DNA of 64,000 nucleotides from Cyanobacteria bacterium P01_A01_bin.123 (GCA_039815185.1 JBCBZT010000039.1:1-64000); one strand, 5' to 3'. Shown: positions 38,534 to 55,597, counted from the first letter of the stretch. Program-made: numbers and translations. Notes: generated by a model from the sequence alone, not told the origin.

Positions 38534-38668
38534 AGCAGACAAGCGAAACGCAATGCATCAATAAGAACTGGCAATCGTTAATCGGCGATCGCGGTGAGTT
38601 CTGTCTGCCCTCGCAATTGTGCTGTCCTTAATCGTTGGACCGTGGTTCTACTAATCCTGCAGGGTGTC

Positions 38669-38702
38669 AGATCCCTGGGTTTTCCGAAAAACCCAGGGAT
38701 CT
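38669..38702. repeat. REP-like hairpin AGATCCCTGGGTTTT..AAAACCCAGGGATCT
   Basis: Same element as at 1295-1328 and 1551-1584. Confidence 0.85.
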
Positions 38703-38735
38703 CTTAGCTCAGACATCATCAAAAATGCTGTGAAT

Positions 38736-38840
38736 TATGGCGCTGGCCAAATTGCTTAATGCACCAGGTAGCGCTGGGATACTCAATACATAAGCAATCT
38801 GGCTCGCCGTAGCGCACAAAGTTTTGTGGCTACGGCTATA
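38736..38840 (+). mobile_element. ~105-bp MITE-like dispersed repeat, copy 3
   Basis: TATGGCGCTGGCC...GGCTACGGCTATA; aligns with the other copies. Confidence 0.8.
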
Positions 38841-38899
38841 AAAACGGGTACCGCTCGCCACACTTGGGCTTAGATGCAGCAGAGCTTGAGCATGGTCGT

Positions 38900-38968
38900 A
38901 GAAACCGGGTTTCTCATGCTGAGCGCTGAGTGCCCCATTGACACCCCTTGCTCAGAAACCCGGTTTCT
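38900..38968. repeat. Inverted pair of AGAAACC(G/C)GGTTTCT palindromes
   Basis: At 38900-38914 and 38954-38968 with a 39-nt spacer; same motif as in 939-1721. A single variant copy is at 52456-52470. Confidence 0.85.
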
Positions 38969-39154
38969 GCAAGGGGCGACGATCAGCAGGGACTAAAGTC
39001 ATAATTACCCGTAGCGAGTAACCTACAGTCTCCGAAATCATGTCTACGATCGGTGTGGACTCTACAGACAACCCCATCACATCAGGAGACAGGATGACGG
39101 CTACACTGCATCAAACTTCGCAACAATCCTGAACACTTTGAACAACCCAGCCCG

Positions 39155-39394
39155 ATGCAGCAGATGGCTTTAACACTGATGTTGCTGGCGATTGAACCCC
39201 GACTGCTAGACATGAAGCAGGCGATTCAGCGCCCGAGCGATCCAGACTTCGATCGCTACTATGTTTCGTCGCACATGGACTATTTGACCCACGCCCGCGA
39301 TCGCCTTGTCGATCTTGCTGCCATGCCAGGGCCAATTTACACCATTGGGCTAATCGAAGCTTATCCGAAATTCCCCATTCAGCTCATTCGTTAA
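39155..39394 (+). CDS. Hypothetical small protein, possibly a frameshifted remnant starting near 39094
   Basis: 79-aa ORF. An RBS-preceded ATG at 39094 is in another frame and stops after 12 codons. Confidence 0.35.
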   Translation: MQQMALTLMLLAIEPRLLDMKQAIQRPSDPDFDRYYVSSHMDYLTHARDRLVDLAAMPGPIYTIGLIEAYPKFPIQLIR

Positions 39395-39516
39395 TCTTGG
39401 ATAACCCTATCTCTCGCTTAAGTTGTCCTTAGCTATCGTGGCTAAAATAGCTGATAAGGCCTGCTGACCTTGAATGTTGGATTAGGCGTAGACAGCGATC
39501 AGGGTGGCAACAGAGC

Positions 39517-40815
39517 ATGGTGTTAGATCTTTCTCAGTTTTACCAAGCGTGTAGTCCCAGTAAATCTCTCAGTTTTGACCAGGGCGATCAGGGATATTAC
39601 ATTGATTTTTCCCCCGTCCGGGGCGGCAGTATTATTCAAGAATTAGGACGCACAATTACGCGACTTGCCCCCGATAGCCCGACCTGTCAACTGTTTACTG
39701 GACATGTCGGCTGTGGTAAATCAACAGAGTTGATCTGCCTAAAAACCCTGGTGGAACAGAACAACTTTCACGTGGTTTATTTTGAATCGAGTGAAGATTT
39801 AGATTTAGCCGATGTGGATGTGACTGACATTTTGCTGGCGATCGCGCGTCAAGTCAGCGAGAGTTTAGAGTCCATTGAGATTAATTTAGACCTGCCCTAT
39901 TTCCATCAACTTTTTCAATCCATTGGGGATATCTTTAAACCCGCATTAGCGATCGCAGACCATCAGTTTTCCAACACCATCGCGGAGATTACCGCCCGCA
40001 CTAAAAACAGCCCAAAACTGCGGAGTCAACTGCGACAGTATTTAGAACCCCGCACTAACGGTATCTTAAATGCTTTAAATCAAGAATTGCTAGAACCTGC
40101 GATCGCAACCTTAAAACAGCGAGGCAAACAGGGATTGTTGGTGATCATTGACAATCTTGATCGGATTGATAACACCCCAGGGGTAGCCGGTCGTCATCAA
40201 CCCAGCTACCTATTTATTGACCGAGGGGAACAGCTGAAAAAGCTTAACTGTCATGTTGTTTATACCCTGCCTTTAGAATTAGTTTTCTCTAGCGATTTAG
40301 GCCTGATTACTAATCGTTTTGGTGTGGTGCCCAAAGTATTAGCAATGGTACCTGTCCGTCACCGAGATGGACAGCTCAGTCCTGAAGGCATGGTGCTGCT
40401 GCGACAATTGGTACTGGCGCGCGCTTTTCCCGGAATTGCTCCCGAACAGCGTTTAGCGTGGCTGGATCAGGTATTTGATGCCCCAGAGACCCTGGATCGG
40501 TTGTGTAGCGTTAGCGGCGGCCATGTCCGTAACCTACTGGTGCTGCTGTATCGCTGTTTGCAACGAGAAGATCCGCCTTTATCGCGGACTTGCGTTGAGC
40601 AAATTCTTCAACAACGCCGCAGTGAATTATTGCTGGCGCTGTCGGTGCCAGAAATCAAATCACTCCAGCGGGTAATGGCGGAAAAACACATTCGCCACGA
40701 CCCTAGTGAACAAATGCTGTTACACAGCATGTTCGTTTTTGAATATCGCAATGGGGGTGAGAGCTGGTTTGATATCAACCCCATTCTGGCAGAGTCCCCG
40801 GAGTTTCAACCATGA
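39517..40815 (+). CDS. P-loop ATPase (AAA+/KAP-like), paralog 1
   Basis: Walker A GHVGCGKST, Walker B VIIDNLD, and SGGHVR; ATGA overlap with the next gene. Confidence 0.88.
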   Translation: MVLDLSQFYQACSPSKSLSFDQGDQGYYIDFSPVRGGSIIQELGRTITRLAPDSPTCQLFTGHVGCGKSTELICLKTLVEQNNFHVVYFESSEDLDLADVDVTDILLAIARQVSESLESIEINLDLPYFHQLFQSIGDIFKPALAIADHQFSNTIAEITARTKNSPKLRSQLRQYLEPRTNGILNALNQELLEPAIATLKQRGKQGLLVIIDNLDRIDNTPGVAGRHQPSYLFIDRGEQLKKLNCHVVYTLPLELVFSSDLGLITNRFGVVPKVLAMVPVRHRDGQLSPEGMVLLRQLVLARAFPGIAPEQRLAWLDQVFDAPETLDRLCSVSGGHVRNLLVLLYRCLQREDPPLSRTCVEQILQQRRSELLLALSVPEIKSLQRVMAEKHIRHDPSEQMLLHSMFVFEYRNGGESWFDINPILAESPEFQP

Positions 40816-43760
40816 GTGATGACGATTCATCCCAAGGATCAATTCCAGAATCAGATCCAGAATTGAGCCAGTGGTCAACAGAAAATGATGCCGCTTTAAC
40901 CGCCCTCATCCGAGCGATTCAGCTATCAGCGGGCCAATTTTCGCTGATTTTAGCCCACTGCAACTATGGCGATCTGCGCGATCGCGTCATCCAACATCTC
41001 AGTCAACGCAATGATCTGGGGCTGACTTTCTTGCACTTGCCCCCCGACGTCAGCTCCCTGTTAACCACGCTGAAAGAGGCCGACCCTGAAACCCTAGACG
41101 CCAAAGAAGGCTCAAATAATAACCCCAGCGCCTTGATGGTGCTGGGGTTAGAGGCGGTTGATCAGCTGCAAATCTTGCTCAGCACTGCCAATCGAGCCCG
41201 AGAAGAATTTCGTAAATCTTTTCCCTTTGCGATGGTGTTATGGGTCAACGACGCCATTTTAAGGCAATTGATTCGCCGGGCTCCTGATTTAGAAAACTGG
41301 GCAACGCCGATCCATTTCACAGTGACACCGCCGGCGTTGCTGAAGCTGCTACAACGCACCACCGACGATGTGTTTGCCAGAGTCATGGAAGCCGGGGCGG
41401 GGCGATTTGTCAATGCAGCCAATTTATACCCCGATGGCGAAGAGAAACAACGCATTAATGCCCTGGAAGCCGCCCTGCGCGAGCTAAAACTGCGCCAGAT
41501 TCAACCGGAAGCTGCACTCCAGGCCAGCTTAGAATTCGTCCTGGGACAAGACACTTGGGATCAGCCCGAGACTGCTCTGGCACATTACGAACACAGCCTC
41601 GCAATTTGGCCCCCCGACCAAAATCGCTCTCGTCAAGGGTGTGTGCTGTTTTACCTAGGGCTGTGGTGGCGGGCTCAGGCGGTGCGTCACCGAGAGCAAT
41701 ATACCGAAGCTTGTGAACAATCGCTAGACTATTTTCGCCAAGCGATTGGCGTCTTTCGCAGCAGCGATCGATTTGATTTAGAAGCCCGTTTTATCAACGC
41801 CTTAGCAGAAGTTTTGCAACGGCTGGAACGATGGGATGAACTGGCGGATGTCGCCAAGCGGGGCTTAACCCTGCACCAACAAGGCGTATCCCTAGCATCT
41901 CTGGCAGCTGGACAGATGGATCAAAGCGTCCGCTTAGCCCATGACTACGGCATGATGGCCGATGTGGCGCTATCTCAGCAGCAGTGGTCTGTCGCTCAAA
42001 CTCACGCCGAACAAGCCTTAGAGATCTTAAATCAAGTCAATCAGGCGATCGCCAATCATGCTGGACCTCGCCCCGATGCTTCCCTCGATTGGGCTCGGGC
42101 CTACCACCGCCAACAGTATCACTTTAGTTTGGCCCGAGCGTTGTTGGGCATGGGCCAATATCACGGAGCCATTACCCAGCTTGAAATCGCTCAACACCTA
42201 GGCAACCCCAAATATGATCCCCAGCTCTACATTCGCATTTCTCGCCAGCTCCAATTGCTCTACTACCGTCAAAAGCGCTATTTAGAAGCCTTTCAGATTC
42301 GCCAAATTTACCGCACCGTCGAACAGCAGTATGGTCTGCGAGCCTTTATCGGGGCCGGGCGGTTGCAGCCCCACCAAGTGGTGCAAAGTCCAGCCCTAGC
42401 TGTGCCCGATCAACCCGATGACATCCCCCCTGAAATCGTTGCCTCTGGGCGTCAACCCGACGTGGAACGGCTAGTACATCGCATGTATCGACCTGACTAT
42501 AAACTCACCGTAATCTACGGTCAGTCTGGGGTAGGCAAAAGTTCCATGATTGAAGCAGGGTTAATCCCGGCGTTGCAGCAACAGGTGATTGACAGCCGCG
42601 AAGTCGTACCCGTACTGCTGCAAATCTACGCCCATTGGGTGAAGCAGTTGGGGGCTCAGCTGGCGATCGCTTCCCATCCTGACGACACCAACCCCGTAGA
42701 TCTGCCGTCGTTAGACGCTCAAGCCACAATTTTGGCCCAACTACAAACCAATGCTGACCACAATCGATTAACCGTCCTGATTTTTGATCAGTTTGAGGAT
42801 TTTTTTGCCACGACGGCCAGCCAAGCTTCTCATCGCCCGTTCTACAAGTTTTTAGGACAGTGCTTGGCCCTCCCTTACATCAAAGTGGTGCTGTCTTTAC
42901 GTGAAGACTACATCCACCATCTGCTGGTATTCAATCGCCTAGTCAACCTAGATATTATCGACAATAACATCCTCGATAAAGCCATCCTTTATCACATTGG
43001 CAACTTCACCAAATCCGATGCCCGCCAACTGATTCAGCAGTTGACCCACCAGGCCCAGTTCCATCTAGAACCTGCTTTGATCGATCGCCTAGTGTATGAT
43101 TTGGCTGAGGCATCCGAAGAAGTCCGCCCAATTGAACTGCAGGTTTTGGGGAACCAACTCCAAACCGAAAACATCACGACTCTAGCCCAGTACGAGACCT
43201 TTGCCAATGGAGATCGCAGCTCCAAAGAAGTCATCGTCGAACGCTACCTCGACGCAGTGATCAAAGACTGTGGTCCCGAAAATCGCCGCGCCGCTGAACT
43301 GGTGCTTTACTGGCTGACCGACGAAGCCGAGACCCGCCCCCTACGCACCAAAGCTGAATTGGCCACCAACTTAGACTCTGAAGCCCATCGCCTCGATTTG
43401 GTACTCAAGATTCTGGTTCACTCCGGAATTGTGTTGCTATTGCCGGCTCACCCGATCGAACGCTATCAGTTGGTTCATGACTATCTGGTAACTCTAATTC
43501 GTCGCCAACGCGGGGCTAAGCTGCTCCAAGAAATTGCCATCCTGCGTCAGCAAGAAGCCGATAGCCGATCTGCACTAATGCGTCAGATAAGAAATAGGCT
43601 AAGAATAACTATAGTAGGCAGTATACTAGCGCTTTTTCTTGGAGTTTTGGTTGTAGCACTAGCTCTAGAAATTCAATCTCTGAGAAATGAAGTTCGGGCT
43701 GACAAAATAAGAATCAAGGAACTTGAAAGAATACTTGATCACCTCCAAAATGAGCAATAA
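40812..43760 (+). CDS. TPR + STAND NTPase (nSTAND1-like) + TM protein lacking a WD40 domain
   Basis: Degenerate P-loop-like N-terminus, TPR-like helices, GQSGVGKSS, LIFDQFE, LSLREDY and YQLVHDYL, then a TM and a short coiled-coil tail. Confidence 0.85.
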   Translation: MSDDDSSQGSIPESDPELSQWSTENDAALTALIRAIQLSAGQFSLILAHCNYGDLRDRVIQHLSQRNDLGLTFLHLPPDVSSLLTTLKEADPETLDAKEGSNNNPSALMVLGLEAVDQLQILLSTANRAREEFRKSFPFAMVLWVNDAILRQLIRRAPDLENWATPIHFTVTPPALLKLLQRTTDDVFARVMEAGAGRFVNAANLYPDGEEKQRINALEAALRELKLRQIQPEAALQASLEFVLGQDTWDQPETALAHYEHSLAIWPPDQNRSRQGCVLFYLGLWWRAQAVRHREQYTEACEQSLDYFRQAIGVFRSSDRFDLEARFINALAEVLQRLERWDELADVAKRGLTLHQQGVSLASLAAGQMDQSVRLAHDYGMMADVALSQQQWSVAQTHAEQALEILNQVNQAIANHAGPRPDASLDWARAYHRQQYHFSLARALLGMGQYHGAITQLEIAQHLGNPKYDPQLYIRISRQLQLLYYRQKRYLEAFQIRQIYRTVEQQYGLRAFIGAGRLQPHQVVQSPALAVPDQPDDIPPEIVASGRQPDVERLVHRMYRPDYKLTVIYGQSGVGKSSMIEAGLIPALQQQVIDSREVVPVLLQIYAHWVKQLGAQLAIASHPDDTNPVDLPSLDAQATILAQLQTNADHNRLTVLIFDQFEDFFATTASQASHRPFYKFLGQCLALPYIKVVLSLREDYIHHLLVFNRLVNLDIIDNNILDKAILYHIGNFTKSDARQLIQQLTHQAQFHLEPALIDRLVYDLAEASEEVRPIELQVLGNQLQTENITTLAQYETFANGDRSSKEVIVERYLDAVIKDCGPENRRAAELVLYWLTDEAETRPLRTKAELATNLDSEAHRLDLVLKILVHSGIVLLLPAHPIERYQLVHDYLVTLIRRQRGAKLLQEIAILRQQEADSRSALMRQIRNRLRITIVGSILALFLGVLVVALALEIQSLRNEVRADKIRIKELERILDHLQNEQ
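41925..43586 (+). repeat. ~1.65-kb direct repeat, copy A (TPR end + STAND NTPase core)
   Basis: Colinear nucleotide similarity to 48157-49820; differences are largely synonymous by eye. Confidence 0.9.
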
Positions 43761-44117
43761 ATTCTTTAGACTAATCCTATTGGTTTTCCATATATTTGAG
43801 CAGATAGATAATACTAAAAATAGTCTAACCGTATGTATCAAGTTAATTTGAGGCAGGGTTTCATCAAGGGCGGCGGGACTCGTTTCGTTAATGGTTGCAG
43901 TAACATCGAGGTCGTCGCGATGGGCACTGCCGAGGTTCAGAGTGTTGATTGGATTAGTTGCTAAGGCATCGGGGGCCGAAGTTGCGTCTTGGGTTTGGTT
44001 AACGTTGATGGCGGTGTTGGCGAGATTGGTTTGGCGCAGGTCGTTGGCCTCGGGTGTGGCGTAAGCGTAGGGTGAGATTGCAACATTGGCGACTAAGGCG
44101 AGTGTGAGGTGTTTCAT
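43665..44117 (-). CDS. Hypothetical secreted T/N/A-rich protein, 3' end probably spurious or truncated
   Basis: GGAG RBS and signal-peptide-like MKHLTLALVANVAISPYAYA. Composition turns AT-rich below ~43850 and the ORF overlaps the convergent gene. Confidence 0.5.
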   Translation of the reverse strand: MKHLTLALVANVAISPYAYATPEANDLRQTNLANTAINVNQTQDATSAPDALATNPINTLNLGSAHRDDLDVTATINETSPAALDETLPQINLIHTVRLFLVLSICSNIWKTNRISLKNLLLILEVIKYSFKFLDSYFVSPNFISQRLNF

Positions 44118-44373
44118 GGTTTGGACTCCGGTAGGGCGGGTGAACTGTTCGCCTTGAGTCTTATGATCTAGCGGATTGCTGAGAGGCCTGTGACTGGAAA
44201 ATAAGTACGGCTTAATAGCAAGCTAAGAATGCCCTATGTGTTTAGGCACGAAGGGGAATACGGTATCGAGGCGAAATTTGCAACCCATGATCAATTGTGC
44301 AGTTACATTTTTTGAGGCATCTGCTACTCTACGGCTTACTTGAGATAAAAATAAAGAGCAGATTGAAAAATCC

Positions 44374-45699
44374 TTGAGGTACATTTTGATAGACTTGCAG
44401 AGTTTCTTCTCCGCCAGCAATCCTAGCAAGGCTCTATCCATAAGCGACCCTGAGGATCAGATGTACTATATTGATTTCTCCTCAGTGCGAGGCGGTCAGC
44501 TTACTGAGGCCTTAGAACGAACAATAGTAAGGCTTTCTCCAAATGAGCCGACCTGCCAACTATTCAGTGGCCATATTGGTTGTGGTAAGTCAACAGAATT
44601 ACTTCGTCTTAAGTCAAATTTAGAACTACAAGGGTTCTATGTCGTTTATTTTGAGTCCACTGATTATTTAGATATGGCAGATGTCGATATCACAGATATT
44701 CTGCTAGCCATTATTCGCCGAGTTAGCGAAAGTTTGGAGGAAATAGGGATCAGACTCAGCTCCAATTATTTTAGTCACATTTTAAATGAAATATCAGATC
44801 TCCTGAATGTACCGATTTCATCGTCCAGCACAATGAATATTTCTACAGGAATCTCAGAGGTTGGAAGACGGGCTCGGGTTAGTCCAAAAATCCGGAGTCA
44901 ATTAAGACAATATCTAGAACCCAGAACCAACAGTATTTTGGAAGCTATAAACGTTCTACTACGGTATGCCACTGAAAAGCTTATGCGGCAAGGTAAAAAG
45001 GGAATTGCTATTCTTATTGACAATTTAGACCGTATTGATTCTCGCTCAACCATTGCAGGACGTTCACAACCAGAATATATTTTTATTGATCGGGGAGAGC
45101 AATTAAGAGCATTGGATTGCCACTTAGTATATACGGTACCAATATCTGTTATTTTCTCCAATGACGGTGAAACGTTGAAGAATCGATTGGGCGGCGGTAT
45201 TCGTCCTAAAGTTCTACCAATGATTCCTGTAAAACATCGAGATGGTAGCCGTCATGAGGAGGGTATGTCTCTGTTAAGACAGATGGTTCTAGCACGAGCA
45301 TTTCCGAGAGCTAACACAGCACAGCGTTTCAACTTAATCTATGAGATTTTTGATTCTCCTGAAACCTTAGACCGTCTTTGCTTCATAAGCGGCGGTCACG
45401 TGCGGAACTTGTTGGGACTACTCTATCGCTGCCTACAAGAAGAAGATCCCCCATTTTCGAGATCCCTACTAGAAAAGATGATTCGAGAGACACGAGATGT
45501 ATTAGTACTGTCAATTTCTGAAAGAGAGTGGAAATTTTTAATAGAGGTAGTGAAGACCCAGATTGTAAGCAGCGATAAAGATCTTTGGACTCTTCTAAGA
45601 AGTCTATTTCTATTTGAATATCGAGATCAGCAAGGGAGCTGGTTTGACATAAATCCAGTTCTAATAGAAACAGAGAAATTCAAGTCTTTTCAACTATAG
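44374..45699 (+). CDS. P-loop ATPase, paralog 2
   Basis: GHIGCGKST, ILIDNLD and SGGHVR; clearly homologous to 39517..40815; AT-rich. The start may be TTG 44386. Confidence 0.88.
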   Translation: MRYILIDLQSFFSASNPSKALSISDPEDQMYYIDFSSVRGGQLTEALERTIVRLSPNEPTCQLFSGHIGCGKSTELLRLKSNLELQGFYVVYFESTDYLDMADVDITDILLAIIRRVSESLEEIGIRLSSNYFSHILNEISDLLNVPISSSSTMNISTGISEVGRRARVSPKIRSQLRQYLEPRTNSILEAINVLLRYATEKLMRQGKKGIAILIDNLDRIDSRSTIAGRSQPEYIFIDRGEQLRALDCHLVYTVPISVIFSNDGETLKNRLGGGIRPKVLPMIPVKHRDGSRHEEGMSLLRQMVLARAFPRANTAQRFNLIYEIFDSPETLDRLCFISGGHVRNLLGLLYRCLQEEDPPFSRSLLEKMIRETRDVLVLSISEREWKFLIEVVKTQIVSSDKDLWTLLRSLFLFEYRDQQGSWFDINPVLIETEKFKSFQL

Positions 45700-45713
45700 A
45701 TGCGTTATTAAAA

Positions 45714-47063
45714 GTGGTTGACAATCGATTCCTTGAAGTCTTTAATCCTGTAAATGTCGTAAATGACGACCGCTACTATGTTGACTTTTCTCTGGTGACA
45801 GGTGAAAGAGTTCTTGAACCAATGAGAAGAACCATTTGCCTTAGCAAGCCAGATAGCTTTACTAGCCAACTGATTACAGGTTATGGTGGTTGCGGCAAAT
45901 CAACAGAGTTAATAAATCTAAAGTCAAAACTCATCCGAGATGGGTTCTATGTTGTTTACTTTAGATTTGAGCGCCAGCTAAATGAAGTAGATGTAAGGCC
46001 AACTGATATTATTTTATTAAGCATTGCTTATCGAGTCATTCAAAGCTTAAAAAGAGACTTCGAAATTAACCTTGAACCTAATTTTTTCATAAGAATATGT
46101 ATCTGGTTAGCGGATGTTCTTTTGGGCATATTTCGTCTTCAGTTGAATTTTGAAGTGGAGCGGGAAATCCCAAAGGTGGGCAAAGTTAAGATTTCGATTA
46201 AACCAAAAGATACTACTAGGAATCTAAGTAAACTCGAATTTTGGGATCGCATTAAACCTTCCTCAAATAATATTTTAGACTTCGTCAATGAGATTCTTCA
46301 TAGGGCTACTGGCAAGCTAAAACAGCTTAATAAGAAAGGCCTTGTTGTTATTGTAGACAACCTAGATCACCTGGACAAATCGACAGATTTATCTCTACTA
46401 GAACAGGTATTTATTGACAGGAATGAACCTTTAAGCCAACTAAAATGCCATATTATTTATACACTCCCAATTTCATTAATTTATTCCAAGAAATATGAAT
46501 CTTTAAAGAGACTAGGTGGTGGCATTGATCCAAAGATATTAAGGATAGTTCCTGTGCAACTTCGCGACGGCAGCGAGAATTTAGAGGGAATTAAACTTCT
46601 TAAGCAAGTAATTCTTTCAAGAGCATTTCCACACGTTCATGTCGATAAACGCTATAGCCTTATTAGCCAACTATTTGACAATCCAGAAAGCCTAACCAGA
46701 CTATGCAGAATAAGTGGTGGAAAGGTACAAAAACTTTTGGAAATTCTTAATAATTGTCTGCAAAGAGTATACCCAAAAATTCTCGTCAAAGGAGATATAG
46801 AATATGAAATAAAGCAATATTGCAATAGGCTCTTATTTAGAATGACAGAGGAAGAACGAAAGATAGTTTGTCAGATACTACAGAACATTGATCCAGAGAT
46901 TGCGTTAGAAAAGCGTGAACTTCTTTTGTATGGAATTCAAAAGGGACTTATCCTGGAATATAAAGATCGTTATAAGGGAAGTTGGTTTGGCCTTGACCCA
47001 ACTTTTTTAGAGATCGAGGAGTTTCAAGCTATAGTCAAATCAAAAAACTCTAAACATGAGTAG
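45714..47063 (+). CDS. P-loop ATPase, paralog 3 (more divergent)
   Basis: GYGGCGKST, VIVDNLD and SGGKVQ; very AT-rich; overlaps the next gene by 8 bp. Confidence 0.85.
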   Translation: MVDNRFLEVFNPVNVVNDDRYYVDFSLVTGERVLEPMRRTICLSKPDSFTSQLITGYGGCGKSTELINLKSKLIRDGFYVVYFRFERQLNEVDVRPTDIILLSIAYRVIQSLKRDFEINLEPNFFIRICIWLADVLLGIFRLQLNFEVEREIPKVGKVKISIKPKDTTRNLSKLEFWDRIKPSSNNILDFVNEILHRATGKLKQLNKKGLVVIVDNLDHLDKSTDLSLLEQVFIDRNEPLSQLKCHIIYTLPISLIYSKKYESLKRLGGGIDPKILRIVPVQLRDGSENLEGIKLLKQVILSRAFPHVHVDKRYSLISQLFDNPESLTRLCRISGGKVQKLLEILNNCLQRVYPKILVKGDIEYEIKQYCNRLLFRMTEEERKIVCQILQNIDPEIALEKRELLLYGIQKGLILEYKDRYKGSWFGLDPTFLEIEEFQAIVKSKNSKHE

Positions 47064-50000
47064 ATTGCAATCTACAAGAGAAGATGACTCTCACAGCGTG
47101 TTTGACAAAAAAACGCTACATACCTTGATAAGGACAATTTCATTCTCAGTCAATCAGTTTTCTCTTATCATTTTACGCTGCAATTATCAAGAACTGGGTG
47201 CAAAAATACTGGAGAGGCTGAAAGGAGTTGATGACCTTAGTATTCAGGAAATAATTCTGCCGGTATCCGCTACAACTCTTTACACCACGATCCAGACAGA
47301 ATTCAGGAAAATAGAATCACAGCCTTCTGCACTAATAATTTTAGGATTAGAAGGCATTAAATCATTAGATGACTTATTAGTTTCTGCCAACCAAGTTAGG
47401 GACGAATTTCGAAAAAGCTTTTCTTGTCCTGTGATTTTATTATGTGACGATGAGGCTTTGCAGAAGTTAGTAAGGCTAGCTCCCGATTTCTATAATTGGG
47501 CAACACTTATACAAGTCAATATTTCCACGCCAATATTATACAAATTTATGCGGACAAAAGCGGATAATATTTTTGCTTTGGCTTCCGAAATAGACTTGAA
47601 AAACTTTCAGAATAGAAAGCTTATATATTCAGAAGAAATAGCACGGCAAAAGAAAGAAATTGAGTACGCCTATTCTGATTTTCAGGATCATTATGCGAAT
47701 TCTAATCCAGAAATTGTAGCGATCCTAGACTTTACTTGCGGACTAGAACTTCATGCCAACAACTTAACTTCTGATGCTCTAGAGAAATATTCAAACAGTT
47801 TGGACTTCTGGCGGGAAAAGGACTCAGAGAGATTAGGTGTCTTGCTATTCTATATGGGGATTTGCTACTACCATCATGCTCTTAATCAGCATGAGATTAC
47901 TAGATTCTCTGAGCAAGCAAAGAACTGCTTTAAAGGCTGTTTGACAACATTCGAACAGGGGAAGCATCTTGACCTAGTGTCAAAATACATCGGGCAAGTT
48001 GGCAAAGCCTTGGAGCGAATGGAGGCTTGGGAAGACCTGGAGATACTTGCATCAAGGGCATTGAGCCTCCATAGTACTCTCTACAATTCAGCATATTTAG
48101 GAGGAGGTAGCGATTCCCTATCTAAAGTCGCACTATATCAAGCACAATGGGAAAATAGCATACGTCTGGCTCACGATCACGGCATGTTAGCCAATGTGGC
48201 GCTGTCTCAGCAGCAGTGGTCTGTTGCTCAAACCCATGCTGAGCAGGCTCTAGATATTTTGAATCAGGTCAACCAAGCGGCCGCCCCTGGGATTCCGTCA
48301 CAAACTAATGGATCTTTGAATTGGGATAGAGCTTACTACTGCCAGCAGTATCACTTTAGTTTAGCCCAGGCGCTGTCGGGCATGGGACAGTACCACGAGG
48401 CCATTACCCAACTTGAAATTGCTCAACACTTGGGTAATCTCGAATATGACCCCCAGCTCTACATCCGCATTTCTCGCCGGTTGCAGCTGCTCTACTATAG
48501 CCAAAAACGCTATTTAGAAGCCTTTCAAATGCGCCAAATCTACCGCACTGTCGAACAACAGTACGGTCTGCGAGCCTTTACTGGCGCTGGACGGTTGCGG
48601 CCTCGTAAAACGTTGCACAGTCCAGCGCTAGACGTCCCCGATCAACCCGATGACATTCCCCCCGAAATTGTTGCCTCTGGGCGTCAACCCGATGTGGAAC
48701 GGTTGGTGCATCGCATGTATCGGCCCGACTATAAACTCACCGTGATCTATGGCCAGTCTGGGGTTGGTAAAAGCTCCATGATTGAAGCAGGGCTGATTCC
48801 GGCGTTGCAGCGCCAGGTGATTGACAGTCGTGAAGTCGTGCCTGTGCTCCAGCAAATTTATGCTCATTGGCTCAAGCAGTTGGAGGTTCAGCTGGTGCTC
48901 GCATCCCATCCTAAGGGTGCCAAACAGGCCTCAAAAACACCCTACCTAGACACGCCAGCGGCGATTTTGGCCCAACTCCAAACCAATGCCGATCGCAATC
49001 AACTGACGGTCCTGATTTTTGACCAGTTTGAGGAATTTTTTGTCACGACAGCTAGCCAACCTCACCATCGCCAGTTTTACGAGTTCTTAGGACAGTGCTT
49101 GGCCTTACCCTATGTCAAAGTCATCCTGTCTTTGCGCGAAGACTATATTCACCACCTGCTGGCTTTCAATCGCCTTGTCAATCTAGACATTATCGACAAC
49201 AACATTCTCGATAAGTCCATCCTCTACCGCATTGGCAACTTCACCAAGCCCGACGCCCGCCGGCTGATTCAGCAGTTGACCTACCAAGCGCAATTTCCTT
49301 TAGAACCTACTTTGGTAGAGCGTCTGGTGGAAGATTTGGCTGGAGGCTCTGAGGAAGTTCGCCCGATTGAGCTGCAAATGCTAGGGGAGCAGCTCCAAAC
49401 CGAAAACATCACAACCTTAGCCCAGTACGAGACCTTTGCCAACCGCGAACGCAGTTCAAAAGAAGTGATTGTCGATCGCTATCTCGACTCAGTCATCAAA
49501 GACTGTGGCCCCGAAAATCGTCGTGCTGCCGAGATGGTCCTCTACTGGCTCACCGACGAAGCCGAAACCCGTCCCCTGCGCACCAAAGCTGAACTGGCCA
49601 CCAATTTAGGCTCTGAAGCCCATCGCCTCGATTTGGTACTCAAGATTTTGGTTCACTCCGGGATTGCCTTGCTGCTGCCCGCCCACCCGATCGAACGCTA
49701 TCAGCTGGTTCACGACTATCTAGTAGCCCTGATTCGCCGCCAGCGTGGGGCCAAACTGCTCCAAGAAATTGCCATACTGCGCCGGCAAGAAGCGGATAAC
49801 CGCTTTGCCCTAGTCCGTCAAAAACGTCTGCTGCGAAACGGCGGTATTGTGCTTGCCATCAGTTTGGGAGTGATGTCGATTCTAGGCACCTTAGCTAGCC
49901 GGATTCAAACCCAAAATCAGCTAATCCAGTTGAGATTAGATGCCAGTAATGCCCTCGAACTTTACGAAATTTCTCAAACGGAGGGGTTGCTCGCTGCCCT

Positions 50001-51966
50001 GGAAGCAGCCCAAAACCTACGCAAACTAGACGCAACCGAGCAAGCTAGGATCGTAGCGATGGTGCTACAGCAGATGCTGAATCAATTTACTCAAGACCAC
50101 ACCTTCATTACCGACCAGAATGAAATTTTGGCCCTTAGTGTTAGCCCAGACGACACCTTACTGATCACGGCGGATGCCGAAGGATTTGTCAAACTTTGGA
50201 CGATAGCCGGAGAATTAAAGCACACGCTGCCGCGCCAAGACGGTTCTATTTGGGGGGTCGAGTTTAGCGCCGATGGCAAAACTTTTGCAATCGCGGGCAC
50301 CAATGGGCAGGTCTCCCACTGGGATTTAAACGGCAAGCAGATTACCCAGTGGTCAGCCCACAGCGATAGTGGCGTCGCGAGTTTGGCCTATCATCCCAAT
50401 GGCGATCGCATCGCCACTGCTGGGGCAGACGGCAGTGTCAAGGTGTGGGATACTGATGGCAACTTAGCCAAGGCCTGGATCGCCTCCACTGAAGGTGAGG
50501 TGATTGCCAACCTGAGCTTTAGCCCTGACGGCAATTATCTGGCAACCGCAGGCTACGATGGCCAAGTGCAAGTTTGGAATATTGAAGGCCAACTCGTTCA
50601 TCGTTTTGATCATGCTGAAGCAGTGTTGGACTTGAGTTTTCATCCCCGGGGTAATCAACTGGCCAGCGTTGATCAAGTCGGCAATATTTACCTGTGGGAT
50701 TTGGAACAAGGGGAGTTGCTGCAAACAATGGGGGAAGGCAGTCAACCGCTGGCCGCAGTTCGCTTTACCGAGGACGGCAACCAACTGGTGGTTGCGGGTG
50801 ATTTGGGCATTGTGCAACTTTGGGATATACGTGGCTACAAACTGACAGATTTAGTCGGCCATCAAAGTTGGGTTTGGGCCCTTGATCGCCGACCTAATGG
50901 TCAATTTATCTCCGCTGATATCAGTGGCAAAGTCCAAATCTGGGATGTGACCGATCGGGCTCAGGCGCGCTGGTCTGCCTACGACGCGATCGCGTGGAGT
51001 GTTAACTTTAGCCCCGATGGCCAAACATTGCTGACTGCTGGGGAAACCGGGATAGCCACTCGCTGGGATTTAAACGGCGATCGCTTGACTCAATACGAAG
51101 GGCACGGGGCCGTCACGATTGGTGATCTAGCCCCCCAACAAAACATTTACTGGGCTGAATTTAGTGCCGACGGCGATCGAGTGGTTACCGCCGGTCAAGA
51201 CGGCACTGCTCGGGTTTGGTCTTTAACAGGGCAAGAACTAGCGCTGCTCAATCACGAAGAAGCCGTCGTCAACACGGCCACTATTAGCCCAAATGGTGAC
51301 TCCATCGCAACTGGCGACGGCTTAGGCGACGTCCGGCTATGGAGCATCAATGGAGAGTTACAACAAACCTTAGAAGCCCATTCAGAGAGGGTTTTAAGCG
51401 TCCGCTTTAGCCCCGATGGTCAGTATTTAGCAACCGCCAGTAGCGATCGCACCGCGCAGATTTGGGATCTTCAAACTCAAAAACCCATCGTTCAGCTCGA
51501 AGGCCATCAAGACACGGTATCTTGGGTTGCTTTTAGTCCCGATGGTCAGGCCGTGGTCACCGCCAGTCACGATGGCACCGCCCGCCTTTGGGATCTGCAA
51601 GGCAATCTGATCACCGAACTGATTGGTCATTCCCGCCGAATTACCTGGGTAGGGTTTAGTCCCAAAGGCAATTACATCGCCACTGCCAGTGCTGATAATC
51701 GAGTAATTCTATGGCGCTATCAGGGCAGCCAAACCCATCAAATGCGACAGTTCACCGGCTATGCGGGCGAGGTCTTTAGTGCCTCATTTAGCCCCGACGA
51801 ACAAACCATTGCGGTTTCAGATAGTACGGGAACCATCACGCTATGGCCCATCGAAAACCTCGATATGCTAATTGAGCGCGGGTGCGATTGGGTCCGCCAG
51901 TTCAATGCCCCCAAGGGTAAAGAACGTTCCGAACTTAGCAGTGTCTTGGCTGAATGTAGTCAATAG
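47056..51966 (+). CDS. TPR + STAND NTPase (nSTAND1-like) + TM + 14 WD40 repeats (NLR-like protein)
   Basis: GQSGVGKSS, LIFDQFEE and YQLVHDYL; hydrophobic GGIVLAISLGVMSILGTLA; 14 WD-ending blades counted; cap LDMLIERGCDWV. Confidence 0.9.
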   Translation: MSRLQSTREDDSHSVFDKKTLHTLIRTISFSVNQFSLIILRCNYQELGAKILERLKGVDDLSIQEIILPVSATTLYTTIQTEFRKIESQPSALIILGLEGIKSLDDLLVSANQVRDEFRKSFSCPVILLCDDEALQKLVRLAPDFYNWATLIQVNISTPILYKFMRTKADNIFALASEIDLKNFQNRKLIYSEEIARQKKEIEYAYSDFQDHYANSNPEIVAILDFTCGLELHANNLTSDALEKYSNSLDFWREKDSERLGVLLFYMGICYYHHALNQHEITRFSEQAKNCFKGCLTTFEQGKHLDLVSKYIGQVGKALERMEAWEDLEILASRALSLHSTLYNSAYLGGGSDSLSKVALYQAQWENSIRLAHDHGMLANVALSQQQWSVAQTHAEQALDILNQVNQAAAPGIPSQTNGSLNWDRAYYCQQYHFSLAQALSGMGQYHEAITQLEIAQHLGNLEYDPQLYIRISRRLQLLYYSQKRYLEAFQMRQIYRTVEQQYGLRAFTGAGRLRPRKTLHSPALDVPDQPDDIPPEIVASGRQPDVERLVHRMYRPDYKLTVIYGQSGVGKSSMIEAGLIPALQRQVIDSREVVPVLQQIYAHWLKQLEVQLVLASHPKGAKQASKTPYLDTPAAILAQLQTNADRNQLTVLIFDQFEEFFVTTASQPHHRQFYEFLGQCLALPYVKVILSLREDYIHHLLAFNRLVNLDIIDNNILDKSILYRIGNFTKPDARRLIQQLTYQAQFPLEPTLVERLVEDLAGGSEEVRPIELQMLGEQLQTENITTLAQYETFANRERSSKEVIVDRYLDSVIKDCGPENRRAAEMVLYWLTDEAETRPLRTKAELATNLGSEAHRLDLVLKILVHSGIALLLPAHPIERYQLVHDYLVALIRRQRGAKLLQEIAILRRQEADNRFALVRQKRLLRNGGIVLAISLGVMSILGTLASRIQTQNQLIQLRLDASNALELYEISQTEGLLAALEAAQNLRKLDATEQARIVAMVLQQMLNQFTQDHTFITDQNEILALSVSPDDTLLITADAEGFVKLWTIAGELKHTLPRQDGSIWGVEFSADGKTFAIAGTNGQVSHWDLNGKQITQWSAHSDSGVASLAYHPNGDRIATAGADGSVKVWDTDGNLAKAWIASTEGEVIANLSFSPDGNYLATAGYDGQVQVWNIEGQLVHRFDHAEAVLDLSFHPRGNQLASVDQVGNIYLWDLEQGELLQTMGEGSQPLAAVRFTEDGNQLVVAGDLGIVQLWDIRGYKLTDLVGHQSWVWALDRRPNGQFISADISGKVQIWDVTDRAQARWSAYDAIAWSVNFSPDGQTLLTAGETGIATRWDLNGDRLTQYEGHGAVTIGDLAPQQNIYWAEFSADGDRVVTAGQDGTARVWSLTGQELALLNHEEAVVNTATISPNGDSIATGDGLGDVRLWSINGELQQTLEAHSERVLSVRFSPDGQYLATASSDRTAQIWDLQTQKPIVQLEGHQDTVSWVAFSPDGQAVVTASHDGTARLWDLQGNLITELIGHSRRITWVGFSPKGNYIATASADNRVILWRYQGSQTHQMRQFTGYAGEVFSASFSPDEQTIAVSDSTGTITLWPIENLDMLIERGCDWVRQFNAPKGKERSELSSVLAECSQ
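48157..49820 (+). repeat. ~1.65-kb direct repeat, copy B
   Basis: Colinear with 41925-43586. Confidence 0.9.
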
Positions 51967-52088
51967 CAGGGTGCGTAAAACCTTTTCTAACTAGATCAAC
52001 AGCAACCCCTACCCCTGAGGGCAATTGAGGCTGAGTTCCTTAAGAGGACAAGGTTCTAAAGGGCGCTTGCTGTTGTGAGTTGCCTACC

Positions 52089-52195
52089 ATGAGCCCTAAC
52101 CAGATGACTCAATCTACCGAGTATCACCCTATTACTCAGCCTACAGACAATCTGGTTCGCAGCCGCAGACGAAGCATTACCTCGGCTGCTGTATA
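52089..52195 (+). mobile_element. Degenerate fourth copy of the ~105-bp repeat
   Basis: Ungapped alignment over ~70 nt keeps CCAGAT, ACCGAGTATC and CAATCTGG.TCGC; ends in TATA. Confidence 0.55.
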
Positions 52196-52223
52196 ATTTG
52201 CTTATCATTCTAGAGGTTTTTTG

Positions 52224-52436
52224 ATGAAGACCTTGATGCCCCTTACTCTAACAGCCATCACCCTAGGATTTGTCTCTGCCGTTGCCAATCCGGCCCAACT
52301 CAAACTCGTATCAACCCGCATAGAAACCGAGCGGCAGTTCTCATGGGTTTACCAACCACCGATTGGAGGCGAGCGTAGCGGTCAGCAAGGTACCCGATTT
52401 GAGTCTCGTCCTGCAGATTGGGTCGAACAGATTTAG
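52224..52436 (+). CDS. Small putative secreted protein
   Basis: AGAGG RBS; signal-peptide-like MKTLMPLTLTAITLGFVSAVA; YQPPIGGERSGQQGTR motif. Confidence 0.55.
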   Translation: MKTLMPLTLTAITLGFVSAVANPAQLKLVSTRIETERQFSWVYQPPIGGERSGQQGTRFESRPADWVEQI

Positions 52437-52525
52437 ACTCTCGATGGGTGTCTTTAGAAACTGGGTTTCTCACCGATGCAACAACACAATCAAGCTTTTG
52501 GCAAAAATACCCCAGTGCTTGCACC

Positions 52526-53653: not shown

Positions 53654-54349
53654 ATGCCGCAGCTTGAAGCCAGCCCCGTGATTGACTTCCAGAGTGAAGC
53701 ATACAAAGACGCTTACAGTCGAATCAACGCCATCGTGATCGAAGGTGAGCTGGAAGCCAACGCCAACTACAAGCAGCTGGCTGAGAGCCTGGCTGAGAGT
53801 AAGGACGAACTTCTAAAGCTTGCCAAGATGGAAAATCGGCATATGAAAGGGTTTCAGGCCTGTGGTCGCAACTTAGACGTAACCCCAGACATGACCTTTG
53901 CAAAAGCGTTTTTTGCCTCACTTCACAACAATTTTCAAACGGCTTGGCAGGAGGGACGCATCGTCACCTGTTTGCTGATTCAGTCCTTAATCATTGAAAC
54001 CTTTGCCATTTCTGCTTACAACATTTATATCCCAGTGGCAGATGACTTTGCCCGCAAAATTACTGAGGGCGTGGTCAAAGACGAATATTTGCACCTCAAC
54101 TTCGGCGAAGAATGGCTGAAGGCCAACTTTGAGTCAGCCAAGACAGAACTTGAAGCAGCCAACCGCCAAAACCTGCCCTTGGTTTGGAAAATGCTGAATC
54201 AAGTTGAGCAAGATGCTGAAATCTTAGGCATGGAAAAGGAAGCCCTGGTCGAAGATTTTATGATTACTTACGGCGAAGCCTTGGCCAACATTGGCTTTAG
54301 CAGCCGTGATGTGATGCGACTCTCTGCCCAAGGTTTGGCAACAGTCTAG
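53654..54349 (+). CDS. ado: Aldehyde-deformylating oxygenase
   Basis: [16 protein letters not shown]; di-iron ENRH and DEYLH motifs. Confidence 0.97.
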
Positions 54350-54541
54350 ATCGGGTTGCCTCAGCATCGATTGCACCATAGCCATGCAGTCTGTGCACTT
54401 AGCAATCCCAGTAATTGCGCCCCCATTGGCTTGATTGCCCGCCTTTGAGTGGTAATGGGCTTGCCAAGGCGGGGGCGTCACTGGATGATGGCTTTATTCA
54501 TTAAGTTACCTGGATACAGCCAGGGTTCGTAGTCACACCTA

Positions 54542-55567
54542 ATGTTCGGTTTAATCGGTCACCTTACAAGTTTAGACCACGCCCAAGCGGTGGCGCGGGA
54601 TTTAGGATATCCGGAGTACGCGGATCAGGGCTTAGATTTTTGGTGCAGTGCCCCTCCCCAAATCGTAGATACGATTCGGGTTAAGAGTGCGACCGGCCAA
54701 GAAATTGAAGGTCGTTATGTGGAATCGTGCTTTTTGCCTGAAATGCTAGCCGCTAGGCGTATCAAAGCCGCAACCCGCAAGATTATCAATGCCATGGCCC
54801 ATGCCCAAAAAAACGGTGTAGATATCACGGCTTTGGGAGGGTTTTCATCGATCATTTTTGAAAATTTCAACCTGAACCAGATCACTCGGGTTCGTAACGT
54901 CGCCTTAGACTTTCGACGATTCACCACAGGCAACACCCACACTGCATACATTATTTGCCGTCAGGTCGAACAAGCCGCAGCCAAGCTGGGTATTAACTTA
55001 TCAGACGCCATCGTAGCTGTCTGTGGGGCAACGGGGGATATTGGCAGCGCCGTGTGCCAATGGCTGAATGCCCGGGCTGACCTCAAAGATTTGTTGTTGA
55101 TTGCCCGCAACCAAGCCCGGTTACAAGTGCTCCAGGAAAAGTTAGGGCGCGGTAAGGCGATGAGCTTAGAAGCTGCCCTGCCCCAAGCCGATATTGTGGT
55201 TTGGGTCGCCAGTATGCCCAAAGGGGTCGCCATCGACCCGCAAACGCTTAAGCAGCCGTGCTTAATGATCGACGGCGGCTACCCCAAAAATTTAGCCAGC
55301 CAACTAGACTGGCCCGGTATCCATGTCCTCAACGGGGGGATCGTTGAGCATTCCCTGGATATCGACTGGCGAATTATGAGCATTGTCAACATGGATGTAC
55401 CTGCCCGTCAGCTATTTGCCTGCTTTGCTGAGTCTATGTTGCTAGAGTTTGAAAAGTGGTACACCAACTTCTCTTGGGGACGTAATCAAATTACCCTAGA
55501 AAAAATGGAACAAATTGGCCAAGCCTCTGTAAAGCACGGCTTCCGCCCTTTATTAATTAATAGCTAG
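54542..55567 (+). CDS. aar: Long-chain acyl-ACP reductase
   Basis: [18 protein letters not shown] and FACFAE; follows ado. Confidence 0.97.
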
Positions 55568-55597
55568 TGTTGATTGATAGCTAATTTCCTTAAGCCC

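Follow-up and report, generated by a model that had tools for sequence, protein, structure and literature searches.

From animals, plants and fungi to bacteria, immunity and cell death depend centrally on STAND/NLR receptors, which are usually read as a single chain that holds sensor, switch and effector. A 64,000-nucleotide stretch of DNA from Cyanobacteria bacterium P01_A01_bin.123 (GCA_039815185.1, JBCBZT010000039.1:1-64000; hereafter the window, with positions counted from its first letter) carries, at 39517-51966, a two-protein NTPase receptor module that is typical of filamentous cyanobacteria and is present here in two tandem copies. Where such a chain would have its effector, this module has a dead AAA+ domain that apparently holds a separate ATPase, and the sensor may lie across a membrane; if true, this would be a different wiring of an NLR-like switch.

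The NTPase clade to which the larger protein belongs, nSTAND1, was named and filed among conflict systems by Kaur, Burroughs, Iyer and Aravind (eLife 2021; PMC8195603), and in the accessible portion of that paper nSTAND1 proteins carry effector-associated domains (EADs) or enzymatic effectors fused at the N-terminus. Ternary conflict systems that join a chaperone NTPase to an inactive STAND protein, with vWA-MoxR components, are described in the available sections of Kaur et al. (eLife 2020; PMC7159879), as is the EACC1 system, in which the 5' gene product has a single conserved transmembrane helix and the 3' gene encodes a caspase-fused protein. A survey of prokaryotic STAND proteins (Nature 2026; PMC13581612) covers nSTAND clades, WD40 sensors and cyanobacterial Apaf-1-like proteins, and the part of it at hand does not include the pair considered here. 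A 2026 preprint (10.64898/2026.10.19.760177), in the excerpt available, reports nSTAND1 proteins onto which ParA has been grafted and, in other systems, components of the ORC/Cdc6 type. The preliminary description of this DNA regarded the family as uncharacterized, and no functional study of the ATPase/partner pair was found in the main texts of the open full-text literature. What the window newly provides is a tandem chimeric two-module locus, a co-swapped ATPase-plus-socket cassette, single-module relatives, and a complex prediction run with controls.

Organization of the locus

According to the list of open reading frames (ORFs) and their translations, the locus encodes three paralogous P-loop ATPases of about 430-450 amino acids and two large partner proteins, all on the + strand, in an assembly of 8.09 Mb and 133 contigs.

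39517..40815, + strand: A1, small P-loop ATPase, 432 amino acids (ORF, motifs, Pfam, model)
40812..43760, + strand: S1, partner 1, 982 amino acids, without a WD40 region, stopping about 30 amino acids past its predicted transmembrane helix
44374..45699, + strand: A2a, ATPase paralog, 441 amino acids, TTG start, motifs intact
45714..47063, + strand: A2b, ATPase paralog, 449 amino acids, GTG start
47056..51966, + strand: S2, partner 2, 1636 amino acids, with N-domain, TPR region, nSTAND1, predicted transmembrane helix and WD40 region

Read directly from the DNA, the A1/S1 overlap is ATGA at 40812-40815 and the A2b/S2 overlap is 8 bp at 47056-47063; the gap from A2a to A2b is 14 nt. All five frames are open and the NTPase motifs are intact throughout. 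The ORFs and the DNA confirm the five-gene layout, both stop/start overlaps and the tandem ATPase paralogs of the second module, as first noted in the preliminary description.

The small ATPases and the partner N-domain

Each small ATPase has a Walker A motif (GHVGCGKS at amino acid 62 of A1, GHIGCGKS in A2a and GYGGCGKS in A2b) and a Walker B-like motif (VIIDNLD at amino acid 209 of A1, ILIDNLD in A2a and VIVDNLD in A2b), the DNLD of which (IDNLDR in its wider form) we take to be of the KAP/NACHT-like type. A1 is 55% identical to A2a and 38% to A2b. Against KAP_NTPase (PF07693, cut-off 20 bits) A1 scores 21.8 and A2b 18.8, with no match for A2a at E<=0.01; other Pfam matches of A1 (AAA_22, ATPase_2, AAA_16, NPHP3_N) lie below their cut-offs, and NCBIfam gave weak P-loop matches to RsgA only. 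KAP NTPases have membrane helices inserted in the NTPase domain. Although A1 falls just above the KAP cut-off, it and A2a are unlike KAP proteins in lacking such helices, their maximum 19-residue hydropathy being 1.35 and 1.25, respectively. A2b alone has a hydrophobic stretch (amino acids 124-142, hydropathy 1.91), in a helical insert between Walker A and Walker B, the position at which KAP NTPases have their membrane helices. By structure, Foldseek matched the ATPase model best to ORC1/Cdc6 (probability 1.0) and to two archaeal ATPases, 2qen and 2fna, at E 2.8e-5 to 6e-4 and with template modeling scores of just 0.25-0.30; a PDB sequence search found nothing (best E 0.21). The modeled layout fits an ORC/Cdc6-like arrangement of NTPase core, lid and winged helix.

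The partners begin with an N-terminal domain (N-domain) of about 200 amino acids, referred to below as the socket.

40812..41456, + strand: S1 N-domain, amino acids 1-215, inactive AAA+ fold, predicted docking site of A1
47056..47670, + strand: S2 N-domain, inactive AAA+ fold, about 36% identical to the S1 N-domain

The domain has no G-x4-GK[ST] (Walker A) motif, and across 59-60 aligned homologs C50, Y52, R130 and D159 are invariant. With an alignment of 60 members, Pfam returned no match at E<=1 for the first member and scattered weak matches for the rest (best E 0.0047), a PDB sequence search found nothing (best E 0.15), and ESM Atlas returned 'hypothetical protein' clusters of Cyanobacteriota only. 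The structure modeled from 60 homologs, with a predicted local distance difference test score (pLDDT) of 87.2 and a predicted template modeling score (pTM) of 0.80, has an alpha/beta AAA+ core. Foldseek placed it with RAD17-RFC, MuB, a delta'-like protein, ORC and TnsC (E 1.6e-5 to about 5e-3), and VIA-align matched it to TnsC with Z 12.1 and a root-mean-square deviation of 3.5 A over 155 residues, and to ORC3/4/5, RFC subunits and dynein AAA modules with Z of about 10. On the basis of this model the N-domain is best described as a catalytically dead AAA+ domain. The earlier reading of it as degenerate and P-loop-like stands as to the inactive NTPase-type fold, and is refined by the model, Foldseek and VIA-align to AAA+ without Walker A.

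Pairing of the two proteins and a predicted complex

With one genome scanned per species, relatives of the ATPase were found at no fewer than 592 loci, and the best 80 of these, containing 82 ATPase copies, were analyzed; judged by record titles, nearly all of the 80 come from filamentous cyanobacteria. An N-domain lies immediately downstream in 67 of the 79 ATPase copies that have at least 1 kb of downstream DNA; the STAND part follows too in 53 of the 64 with at least 4 kb, and WD40 repeats are present in 42 of the 57 with at least 7 kb. The expectation that similar gene pairs occur in other filamentous cyanobacteria is borne out by this survey. Within the window's own genome, which has nine members of the family and several N-domain proteins, three remote ATPase paralogs that are 23-26% identical (tblastn) each have an N-domain-TPR gene downstream. 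One partner, of 365 amino acids, overlaps its ATPase (C94:57454), another runs off its contig (C49:125335), and the third is separated from its ATPase by a transposase gene (C94:72233). That the pairing survives at 23-26% identity is strong evidence of a functional unit. Partner paralogs of the same genome, on C15, C104 and C113, have nSTAND1 scores of 94-102 bits. At C104 (L083, 3967-5316, - strand) the ATPase is broken by one TAG, and a DUF3747-Amidase_3 (AmiC-like) gene lies divergently upstream. In Anabaena azotica (L020, 3063-7679) a full long-form partner has no ATPase in the 3 kb upstream and is followed by a complete ATPase-plus-partner module.

These data bear on the simplest alternative, that the genes are independent and merely adjacent, or that the second module is a decaying duplicate. 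S1 lacks WD40 repeats, A2a and A2b begin with TTG and GTG, A2b has a very long branch, and none of the nine listed sequencing runs with this DNA is on record as RNA, all of which could be read in its favor. Against it stand the stop/start overlaps, the pairing in 67 of 79 copies across orders and again at 23-26% identity, the mirrored trees of both proteins (see below), and the open frames with intact NTPase motifs. Incidental adjacency is largely refuted by these conservation data, and we regard it as very improbable.

For the complex itself, A1 was modeled with S1(1-215) using alignments paired by locus, in three runs and beside three controls. The median interaction score (ipSAE) was 0.80 (runs 0.78-0.81), and the best of the three controls reached 0.26; of 157 solved complexes 116 attain the ipSAE mark used for reference, as do 2 of 215 mismatched pairs, an approximate guide where, as here, own alignments are used. 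Contact agreement among the runs was at least 96%, with partner pLDDT of at least 72. On the ATPase side the interface comprises residues 5-17, 64-65 (P-loop), 90-98, 213, 216-218 (beside Walker B), 338-350, 366-374 and 400-405, and on the socket side 27-45, 82-85, 124-134 and 147-168, which take in the invariant R130 and D159. The socket is thus predicted to cover the ATPase nucleotide pocket in the manner of neighboring subunits of AAA+ assemblies. R130 is located in the helix before strand 4, which is not the classical arginine-finger site; it might act in trans on ATP. The suggestion that the ATPase docks on the inactive N-domain is thus backed by adjacency in 67 of 79 copies, by co-divergence, and by a complex prediction that beats its controls. 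PADLOC gave no family above weak matches, homologs are usually partnered, and an interaction is predicted, so that nothing the preliminary description named as grounds for withdrawing the idea has come to light.

The same interface suits a different assignment of roles, in which the small ATPase is an assembly or reset factor, clamp-loader- or MoxR-like, that would spend ATP at the ATPase/socket interface to load, prime or recycle the STAND protein, with the output coming from the nSTAND1 oligomer. The nucleotide pocket is covered by the predicted interface, both folds belong to the ORC/RFC/TnsC group whose members act as loaders, ternary systems of a chaperone NTPase and an inactive STAND protein are described (PMC7159879, in its available sections), and direct ATPase-nSTAND1-like fusions without a socket occur. 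The locus, however, lacks genes for MoxR and vWA proteins, 12 of 79 copies of the ATPase stand alone, and the ATPase is retained in minimal N-domain-TPR pairs without STAND, where it therefore has a role with no nSTAND1 to load. A loader function is, for us, unlikely.

Switch, arm and sensor regions of the partner

Downstream of the N-domain, the two partners are built from the following regions.

41457..42431, + strand: S1 helical TPR-like arm, amino acids about 216-540 (Pfam TPR_12, sub-threshold)
42447..43493, + strand: S1 nSTAND1 NTPase, amino acids 546-894
43611..43667, + strand: S1 predicted transmembrane helix, amino acids 934-952, hydropathy 2.91
48679..49725, + strand: S2 nSTAND1 NTPase, amino acids 542-890
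49840..49896, + strand: S2 predicted transmembrane helix, amino acids 929-947, hydropathy 2.04
50053..51963, + strand: S2 WD40 repeat region, about 640 amino acids

Against nSTAND1 (PF20703, cut-off 27.1) S1 scores 117 bits and S2 115.8 bits, and both retain GQSGVGKS and LIFDQFE intact. A PDB sequence search with the TPR-nSTAND1 part gave no matches at 0.01. WD40 (PF00400) is found in S2 only, with E 4e-93; the closest solved chain to this region is the cyanobacterial 2ymu_A (E 4e-185), and the Apaf-1 WD40 region matches at about 1e-54. Among homologs with complete tails, 46 of 50 have WD40 repeats and 2 of 50 have tails shorter than 150 amino acids. In both S1 and S2 basic residues flank the N-terminal side of the predicted helix (Kyte-Doolittle, 19-residue window), and given a single N-in helix the WD40 region would lie outside the cytoplasm. 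Pfam and hydropathy therefore agree with the original view of the partner as a STAND protein of the nSTAND1 type with a TPR region, a predicted transmembrane helix and an optional WD40 region.

A mosaic locus

The two modules are not simple copies of one another, and their comparison is a natural experiment in which an ATPase-plus-socket cassette has been swapped with the switch nearly unchanged, showing which parts belong together. The relevant segments are as follows.

41947..43585, + strand: left direct-repeat copy, second half of the TPR arm and nSTAND1 (blastn)
48179..49820, + strand: right direct-repeat copy (blastn)
43600..48178, + strand: mostly low-GC cassette between the repeats, GC 0.33-0.44, about 0.55 over about 43900-44200, surroundings about 0.50
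42670..48946, + strand: segment missing from related-strain contigs, junction 42665/42670 to 48945/48946, skipping 6275-6279 nt

The direct repeat (1648 nt, 81.4% identity) is the only direct repeat found by blastn, at about 1.65 kb. The cassette between its copies holds the last 40 or so codons of S1, a small minus-strand ORF that accounts for the patch of about 0.55 GC at about 43900-44200, A2a, A2b, and the first 374 codons of S2, that is, the N-domain and the first half of the TPR arm. Over this 5' part S1 (amino acids 1-378) and S2 (1-374) are 23-45% identical, with third codon positions saturated (about 0.25 identical) and GC of 0.47-0.60 in S1 vs 0.31-0.47 in S2. Over amino acids 379-900 identity is 62-100% in 40-residue windows. 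The ATPases of the two modules, at 38-55% identity, diverge like the N-domains. Quick trees of the ATPase and the N-domain both set A2a, A2b and the S2 socket in one major lineage and A1 and the S1 socket in the other; A1 adjoins Trichocoleus-/Halomicronema-type loci in the ATPase tree, and the S1 socket shares a major group with those loci in the N-domain tree. Sequences from the window's own genome are on long branches, that of A2b being very long (3.07). The co-divergence of ATPase and N-domain within the mosaic S1 and S2, together with the concordant trees, argues that the ATPase moves with its socket and separately from the remainder of the polypeptide to which the socket belongs, and that two ancient ATPase-plus-socket types are joined to nearly the same C-terminal TPR and nSTAND1 switch.

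A single-module state was found in three metagenome runs of three studies (X2, X5 and X6), where related strains have one A1 and one hybrid gene whose 5' part comes from S1 and whose 3' part, WD40 included, comes from S2. Since the related-strain contigs carry this single hybrid module, the locus recombines. The one- and two-module states are one recombination apart, between the 1.65-kb repeats, whether by insertion or duplication here or by deletion there. Recombination inside the nSTAND1 coding region could have set a second-lineage cassette (two ATPases, socket and half of the TPR arm) beside the first, and the same event would have left S1 without its WD40 region. Divergence in X2 was read from contigs, which give no rates: 57 of 3827 nt differ over A1 and 5' S1, 190 of 1354 nt at 49133-50486 (the end of nSTAND1, the transmembrane helix and the first WD40 blades), with an adjoining 145-nt patch too diverged to align, and 66 of 1280 nt in the later blades. 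The locus in this way shows new receptor variants arising by recombination.

Distribution and linkage to cell division genes

In a sample of 401 genomes from across the phylum, a profile of the N-domain found it in 100. Some taxonomic families have it almost without exception (25 of 25, 42 of 45 and 6 of 6), whereas elsewhere it was found in 0 of 29 genomes and, over twelve further families, in 3 of 225. Each genome gives 1-7 N-domain matches, a figure that does not equal a strict copy number, and most of these are in ORFs of 1650-1850 amino acids; the family occurs in most large filamentous cyanobacterial genomes sampled, with several copies each. A search of 1.84 billion cluster representatives gave 2250 matches at E<=1e-3, of which 659 reach E<=1e-30; the 150 matches listed all have the domain at the N-terminus or close to it, one beginning at residue 164. 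With more than 3500 database relatives of the ATPase and 2250 N-domain representatives, the observation is not a matter of chance. ATPases from contigs titled Actinomycetota and Candidatus Sericytochromatia (L028, L060) nest tightly inside Oscillatoriales/Coleofasciculaceae clades, and these contigs are probably mis-binned.

Fusions give another view of the partnership. Of 46 longer ATPase relatives at E<=1e-10, 33 have the ATPase at the C-terminus, after about 500 residues with TPR and sometimes an nSTAND-like NTPase, one having Sigma70_r4 before the ATPase. The other 13 have it at the N-terminus; PF20703 is in the precomputed Pfam lists of 12, and the remaining one is an ATPase-AAA_35 protein with a weak CHAT match. 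Ten of the 46 were scanned directly and contained TPR, nSTAND1-like, AAA_35, weak CHAT and Sigma70_r4 regions. None of the 46 has the socket domain by profile, as would suit a domain used for docking and no longer needed in a single fused chain. TIR was in the precomputed Pfam domains of none of the 46, weak evidence drawn from 8000 scored candidates.

Links to effectors occur in particular copies only. At one locus (L074) a CHAT protease gene is followed by a TPR-ATPase fusion. In the window's genome a fifth long-form partner (C113; L084, 4769-8849, - strand), with no ATPase upstream, has DUF1822 and an 845-amino-acid CHAT-CHASE2 protein on the same strand, a possible protease link, and the ATPase at C94:72233 is divergent from a caspase-GUN4 gene. 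Broken copies occur at C104 (the one TAG already mentioned) and, with stops, in G168, G164, G306 and G314.

Other neighbors are cell division genes. Divergently upstream of the ATPase, ftsQ and ftsZ are found in 23 of the 80 loci, spanning Calothrix, Fischerella, Nostoc, Iningainema, Lyngbya, Okeania, Coleofasciculus, Kastovskya and Oscillatoria, in the Nostocales, Oscillatoriales and Coleofasciculaceae. All 23 of these ATPases fall in one clade of the quick tree (Shimodaira-Hasegawa-like approximate likelihood ratio test, SH-aLRT, 99), and they form one orthologous lineage that has stayed in position since before the orders split. A census of ftsZ in 25 near-complete genomes, chosen only for having the N-domain, found the arrangement in 11, with ATPase-ftsZ spacing of 1.4-6.1 kb. 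A second, minimal ATPase/N-domain-TPR pair is 3-8.5 kb downstream of ftsZ in 6 of the 25, and a family member is within 10 kb of ftsZ in 15, on both sides of ftsQ-ftsZ in two (G098, G206). Simple arithmetic from the few copies per genome of 4-8 Mb gives a chance expectation of a percent or two per genome, kin not being independent. In a 3.8-Mb filamentous genome (G071; L088, C1:2822000-2838000) gshB, hflX, the ATPase and a socket-TPR gene follow ftsQ-ftsZ on the opposite strand, so that the minimal pair has reversed gene order, with socket-TPR, then ATPase, then hflX and gshB. In G098 gshB and hflX are downstream of ftsZ, with an ATPase-family member beyond them.

This linkage is a reason to consider the main rival reading, in which multicellular cyanobacteria use the module not for immunity but as a housekeeping or developmental signaling device that couples an envelope or periplasmic cue to division, the septum or filament integrity, with the copies in the window as extra paralogs. 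Besides the recurrence of one clade beside ftsQ-ftsZ in 23 of 80 loci and 11 of 25 genomes, and of a member within 10 kb in 15 of 25, such a device would suit the near-universality of the N-domain in some families, the high conservation of the ATPase and the lack of an effector. However, the ftsQ-ftsZ locus of the window's genome (C92) lacks a module, the window's copies are mosaic and polymorphic between related strains, and some copies of the family are broken. Kin are also non-independent, so that synteny may reflect inherited gene order rather than functional linkage, and nSTAND1 is filed with conflict systems (PMC8195603, in its accessible portion). We consider a housekeeping role rather unlikely for the locus, although the ftsQ-ftsZ linkage of one lineage provides a handle on how multicellular bacteria might couple surveillance to division.

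Proposed mechanism and role

Taken together, the best reading of the locus is an NLR-like two-protein switch that runs from ligand to nSTAND1 oligomer to clustered ATPases to remote targets, and to this we give about an even chance of being correct. The data above establish the gene anatomy, the folds, the conserved pairing, the co-divergence, the strain polymorphism and a predicted interface; how the proteins bind and are oriented in the cell, in what sequence they act, to what output and for what biological purpose is inferred, as follows. A ligand would bind the WD40/TPR sensor parts and release the nSTAND1 switch, which would oligomerize as in STAND proteins. The oligomer would cluster the small ATPases docked on the dead AAA+ sockets, and the ATPase nucleotide site at the socket interface would then switch and pass the signal to targets that other loci encode, with CHAT/caspase proteases or components of the division machinery as candidates.

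For the copies in the window a conflict system is the likeliest role, acting in NLR-like surveillance or in deciding cell fate. It is favored by the numbers of paralogs, the broken copies, the transposase insertion, the strain polymorphism, the uneven divergence from the X2 contig and the cassette swapping, and also by the CHAT/caspase neighbors and the published assignment of nSTAND1 to conflict systems (PMC8195603, as far as that account is available). Immunity in particular is plausible, and no more than that because of the missing effector, the absence of any PADLOC family above weak matches, and the ftsQ-ftsZ lineage.

A number of observations weigh against the switch and its surveillance role. 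No N-terminal effector or adaptor (TIR, caspase, nuclease, CARD/EAD) was found on S1 or S2 by Pfam, NCBIfam, PADLOC or Foldseek, in keeping with the earlier remark that no nuclease, TIR or caspase effector is visible in the modules, for which Pfam, NCBIfam and PADLOC speak as well. PADLOC-DB v2 gave no family above weak matches, the best being PDC-S20 at E 1e-4 (A1 and A2a). Between cyanobacterial orders the ATPase retains 56-63% identity, more than is usual for a defense gene that evolves fast, one lineage keeps its place beside ftsQ-ftsZ, and the flanks of the locus (ftsH, an ABC permease, aldehyde decarbonylase with a probable acyl-ACP reductase (ado/aar), and accA) are housekeeping genes. 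The 12 of 79 ATPase copies that are partnerless belong mostly to an Oscillatoriales subfamily of about 450 amino acids (L026, beside shikimate dehydrogenase); the TPR-ATPase fusion at L074 is also among the 12. The ATPase model has a moderate pLDDT of 69.9, and the complex score may in part reflect likeness to AAA+ heteromers that are already solved, RFC and ORC. Helix hydropathy in 58 homologs is at least 1.6 in 41, 1.33-1.59 in 9 and at most 1.2 in 8; some homologs thus have no hydrophobic helix, and an outside location of WD40 therefore cannot be family-wide. Tandem Repeats Finder returned nothing over 39000-52500, with no nucleotide-level tandem similarity of the WD40 repeats, and the WD40 array therefore differs from those in which highly similar repeats are shuffled.

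The two-protein switch may also be put more generally. The ATPase and its dead-AAA+ socket would be the exchangeable plug-and-socket core of a large undescribed family with at least two ancient specificities, as the minimal ATPase plus socket-TPR pairs suggest; the long form would be a transmembrane NLR with a second AAA+-type switch, not an enzyme, as its output, and the system would have arisen beside ftsQ-ftsZ, linking sensing at the membrane or beyond it to division arrest or cell fate in multicellular cyanobacteria. That whole extended proposal is doubtful, and is offered as a possibility.

Surrounding sequence

Between the modules, a 150-amino-acid ORF on the - strand (43665-44117) has a signal-peptide-like start and a 3' end that overlaps the end of S1; a Pfam scan of it gave no match. 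Immediately 5' of A1, within a long intergenic region, is a small + strand ORF of about 80 amino acids (39155-39394). The 1-kb gap between ftsH and A1 also holds a short element at 38731-38842 with summed depth of about 660 vs about 21 in its flanks (metagenome contigs of run X2) and many loose ends at both edges, with palindromic stretches around it at about 38660-38710 and 38900-38970; it looks like a dispersed repeat similar to a miniature inverted-repeat transposable element (MITE). Promoter and terminator scans showed no excess over shuffles (22 vs 17.7 +/- 4.0 and 13 vs 13.4 +/- 3.5). Downstream, 53654-56581 is the cyanobacterial alkane locus, with aldehyde decarbonylase (Ald_deCOase, E 2e-119), a probable acyl-ACP reductase, and accA next.

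Relation to described systems

Of the described systems that share parts with this locus, three were rejected as identifications. An iSTAND/VMAP ternary system does not apply, since there are no MoxR or vWA genes in the window at 33-58 kb. The two-gene EACC1 system, as given in the accessible sections of PMC7159879, does not apply either, the 5' gene here encoding a soluble 430-amino-acid ATPase and the window having no caspase. A transposon reading (TnsC/MuB-like) was set aside as well: no transposase is encoded at 33-58 kb, and the pair is chromosomal and syntenic. A check of the locus against the PADLOC library, as proposed earlier, likewise matched no already described defense system; the S2 WD40 region matches HEAT-ARM_XIII, with no Avs, bNACHT or other system protein.

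The folds of the ATPase and the socket resemble those of ORC/Cdc6, RFC and TnsC, assemblies that mix active and inactive subunits which complete one another's ATP sites. In contrast to these, no relationship is found at the sequence level (best PDB E 0.15-0.2), there are no DNA-related or transposition genes nearby, and the role here, as far as it can be judged, would be signaling rather than loading. The iSTAND ternary systems, to the extent that the published text at hand describes them, resemble the locus in pairing an active AAA+-type NTPase with an inactive NTPase-fold module and in occurring in multicellular bacteria; they are unlike it in that the inactive module here is an AAA+ core of about 200 amino acids fused to an active STAND protein, not a stand-alone iSTAND protein.

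The tripartite plan of STAND/NLR proteins is seen in S2 as an NTPase with C-terminal repeats, and the repeats are lost in S1. With Apaf-1 and Apaf-1-like STAND-WD40 proteins, Avs and bNACHT (PMC13581612, in the part available) the locus has in common the nucleotide switch and a WD40 beta-propeller sensor, whereas here there is no CARD, caspase, nuclease or TIR, the ATPase is a separate gene, and a transmembrane helix is predicted. The nSTAND1 clade, as presented in the accessible portion of PMC8195603, shares several features with the locus: S1 and S2 have NTPase domains far above the PF20703 cut-off, S2 has C-terminal WD40 repeats, as many STAND proteins do, and the distribution is centered on filamentous cyanobacteria. 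Unlike the nSTAND1 proteins described there, the partners of this locus begin with a dead AAA+ domain and a TPR arm, are accompanied by a separate ATPase, and have a predicted membrane helix between the NTPase and the WD40 region.

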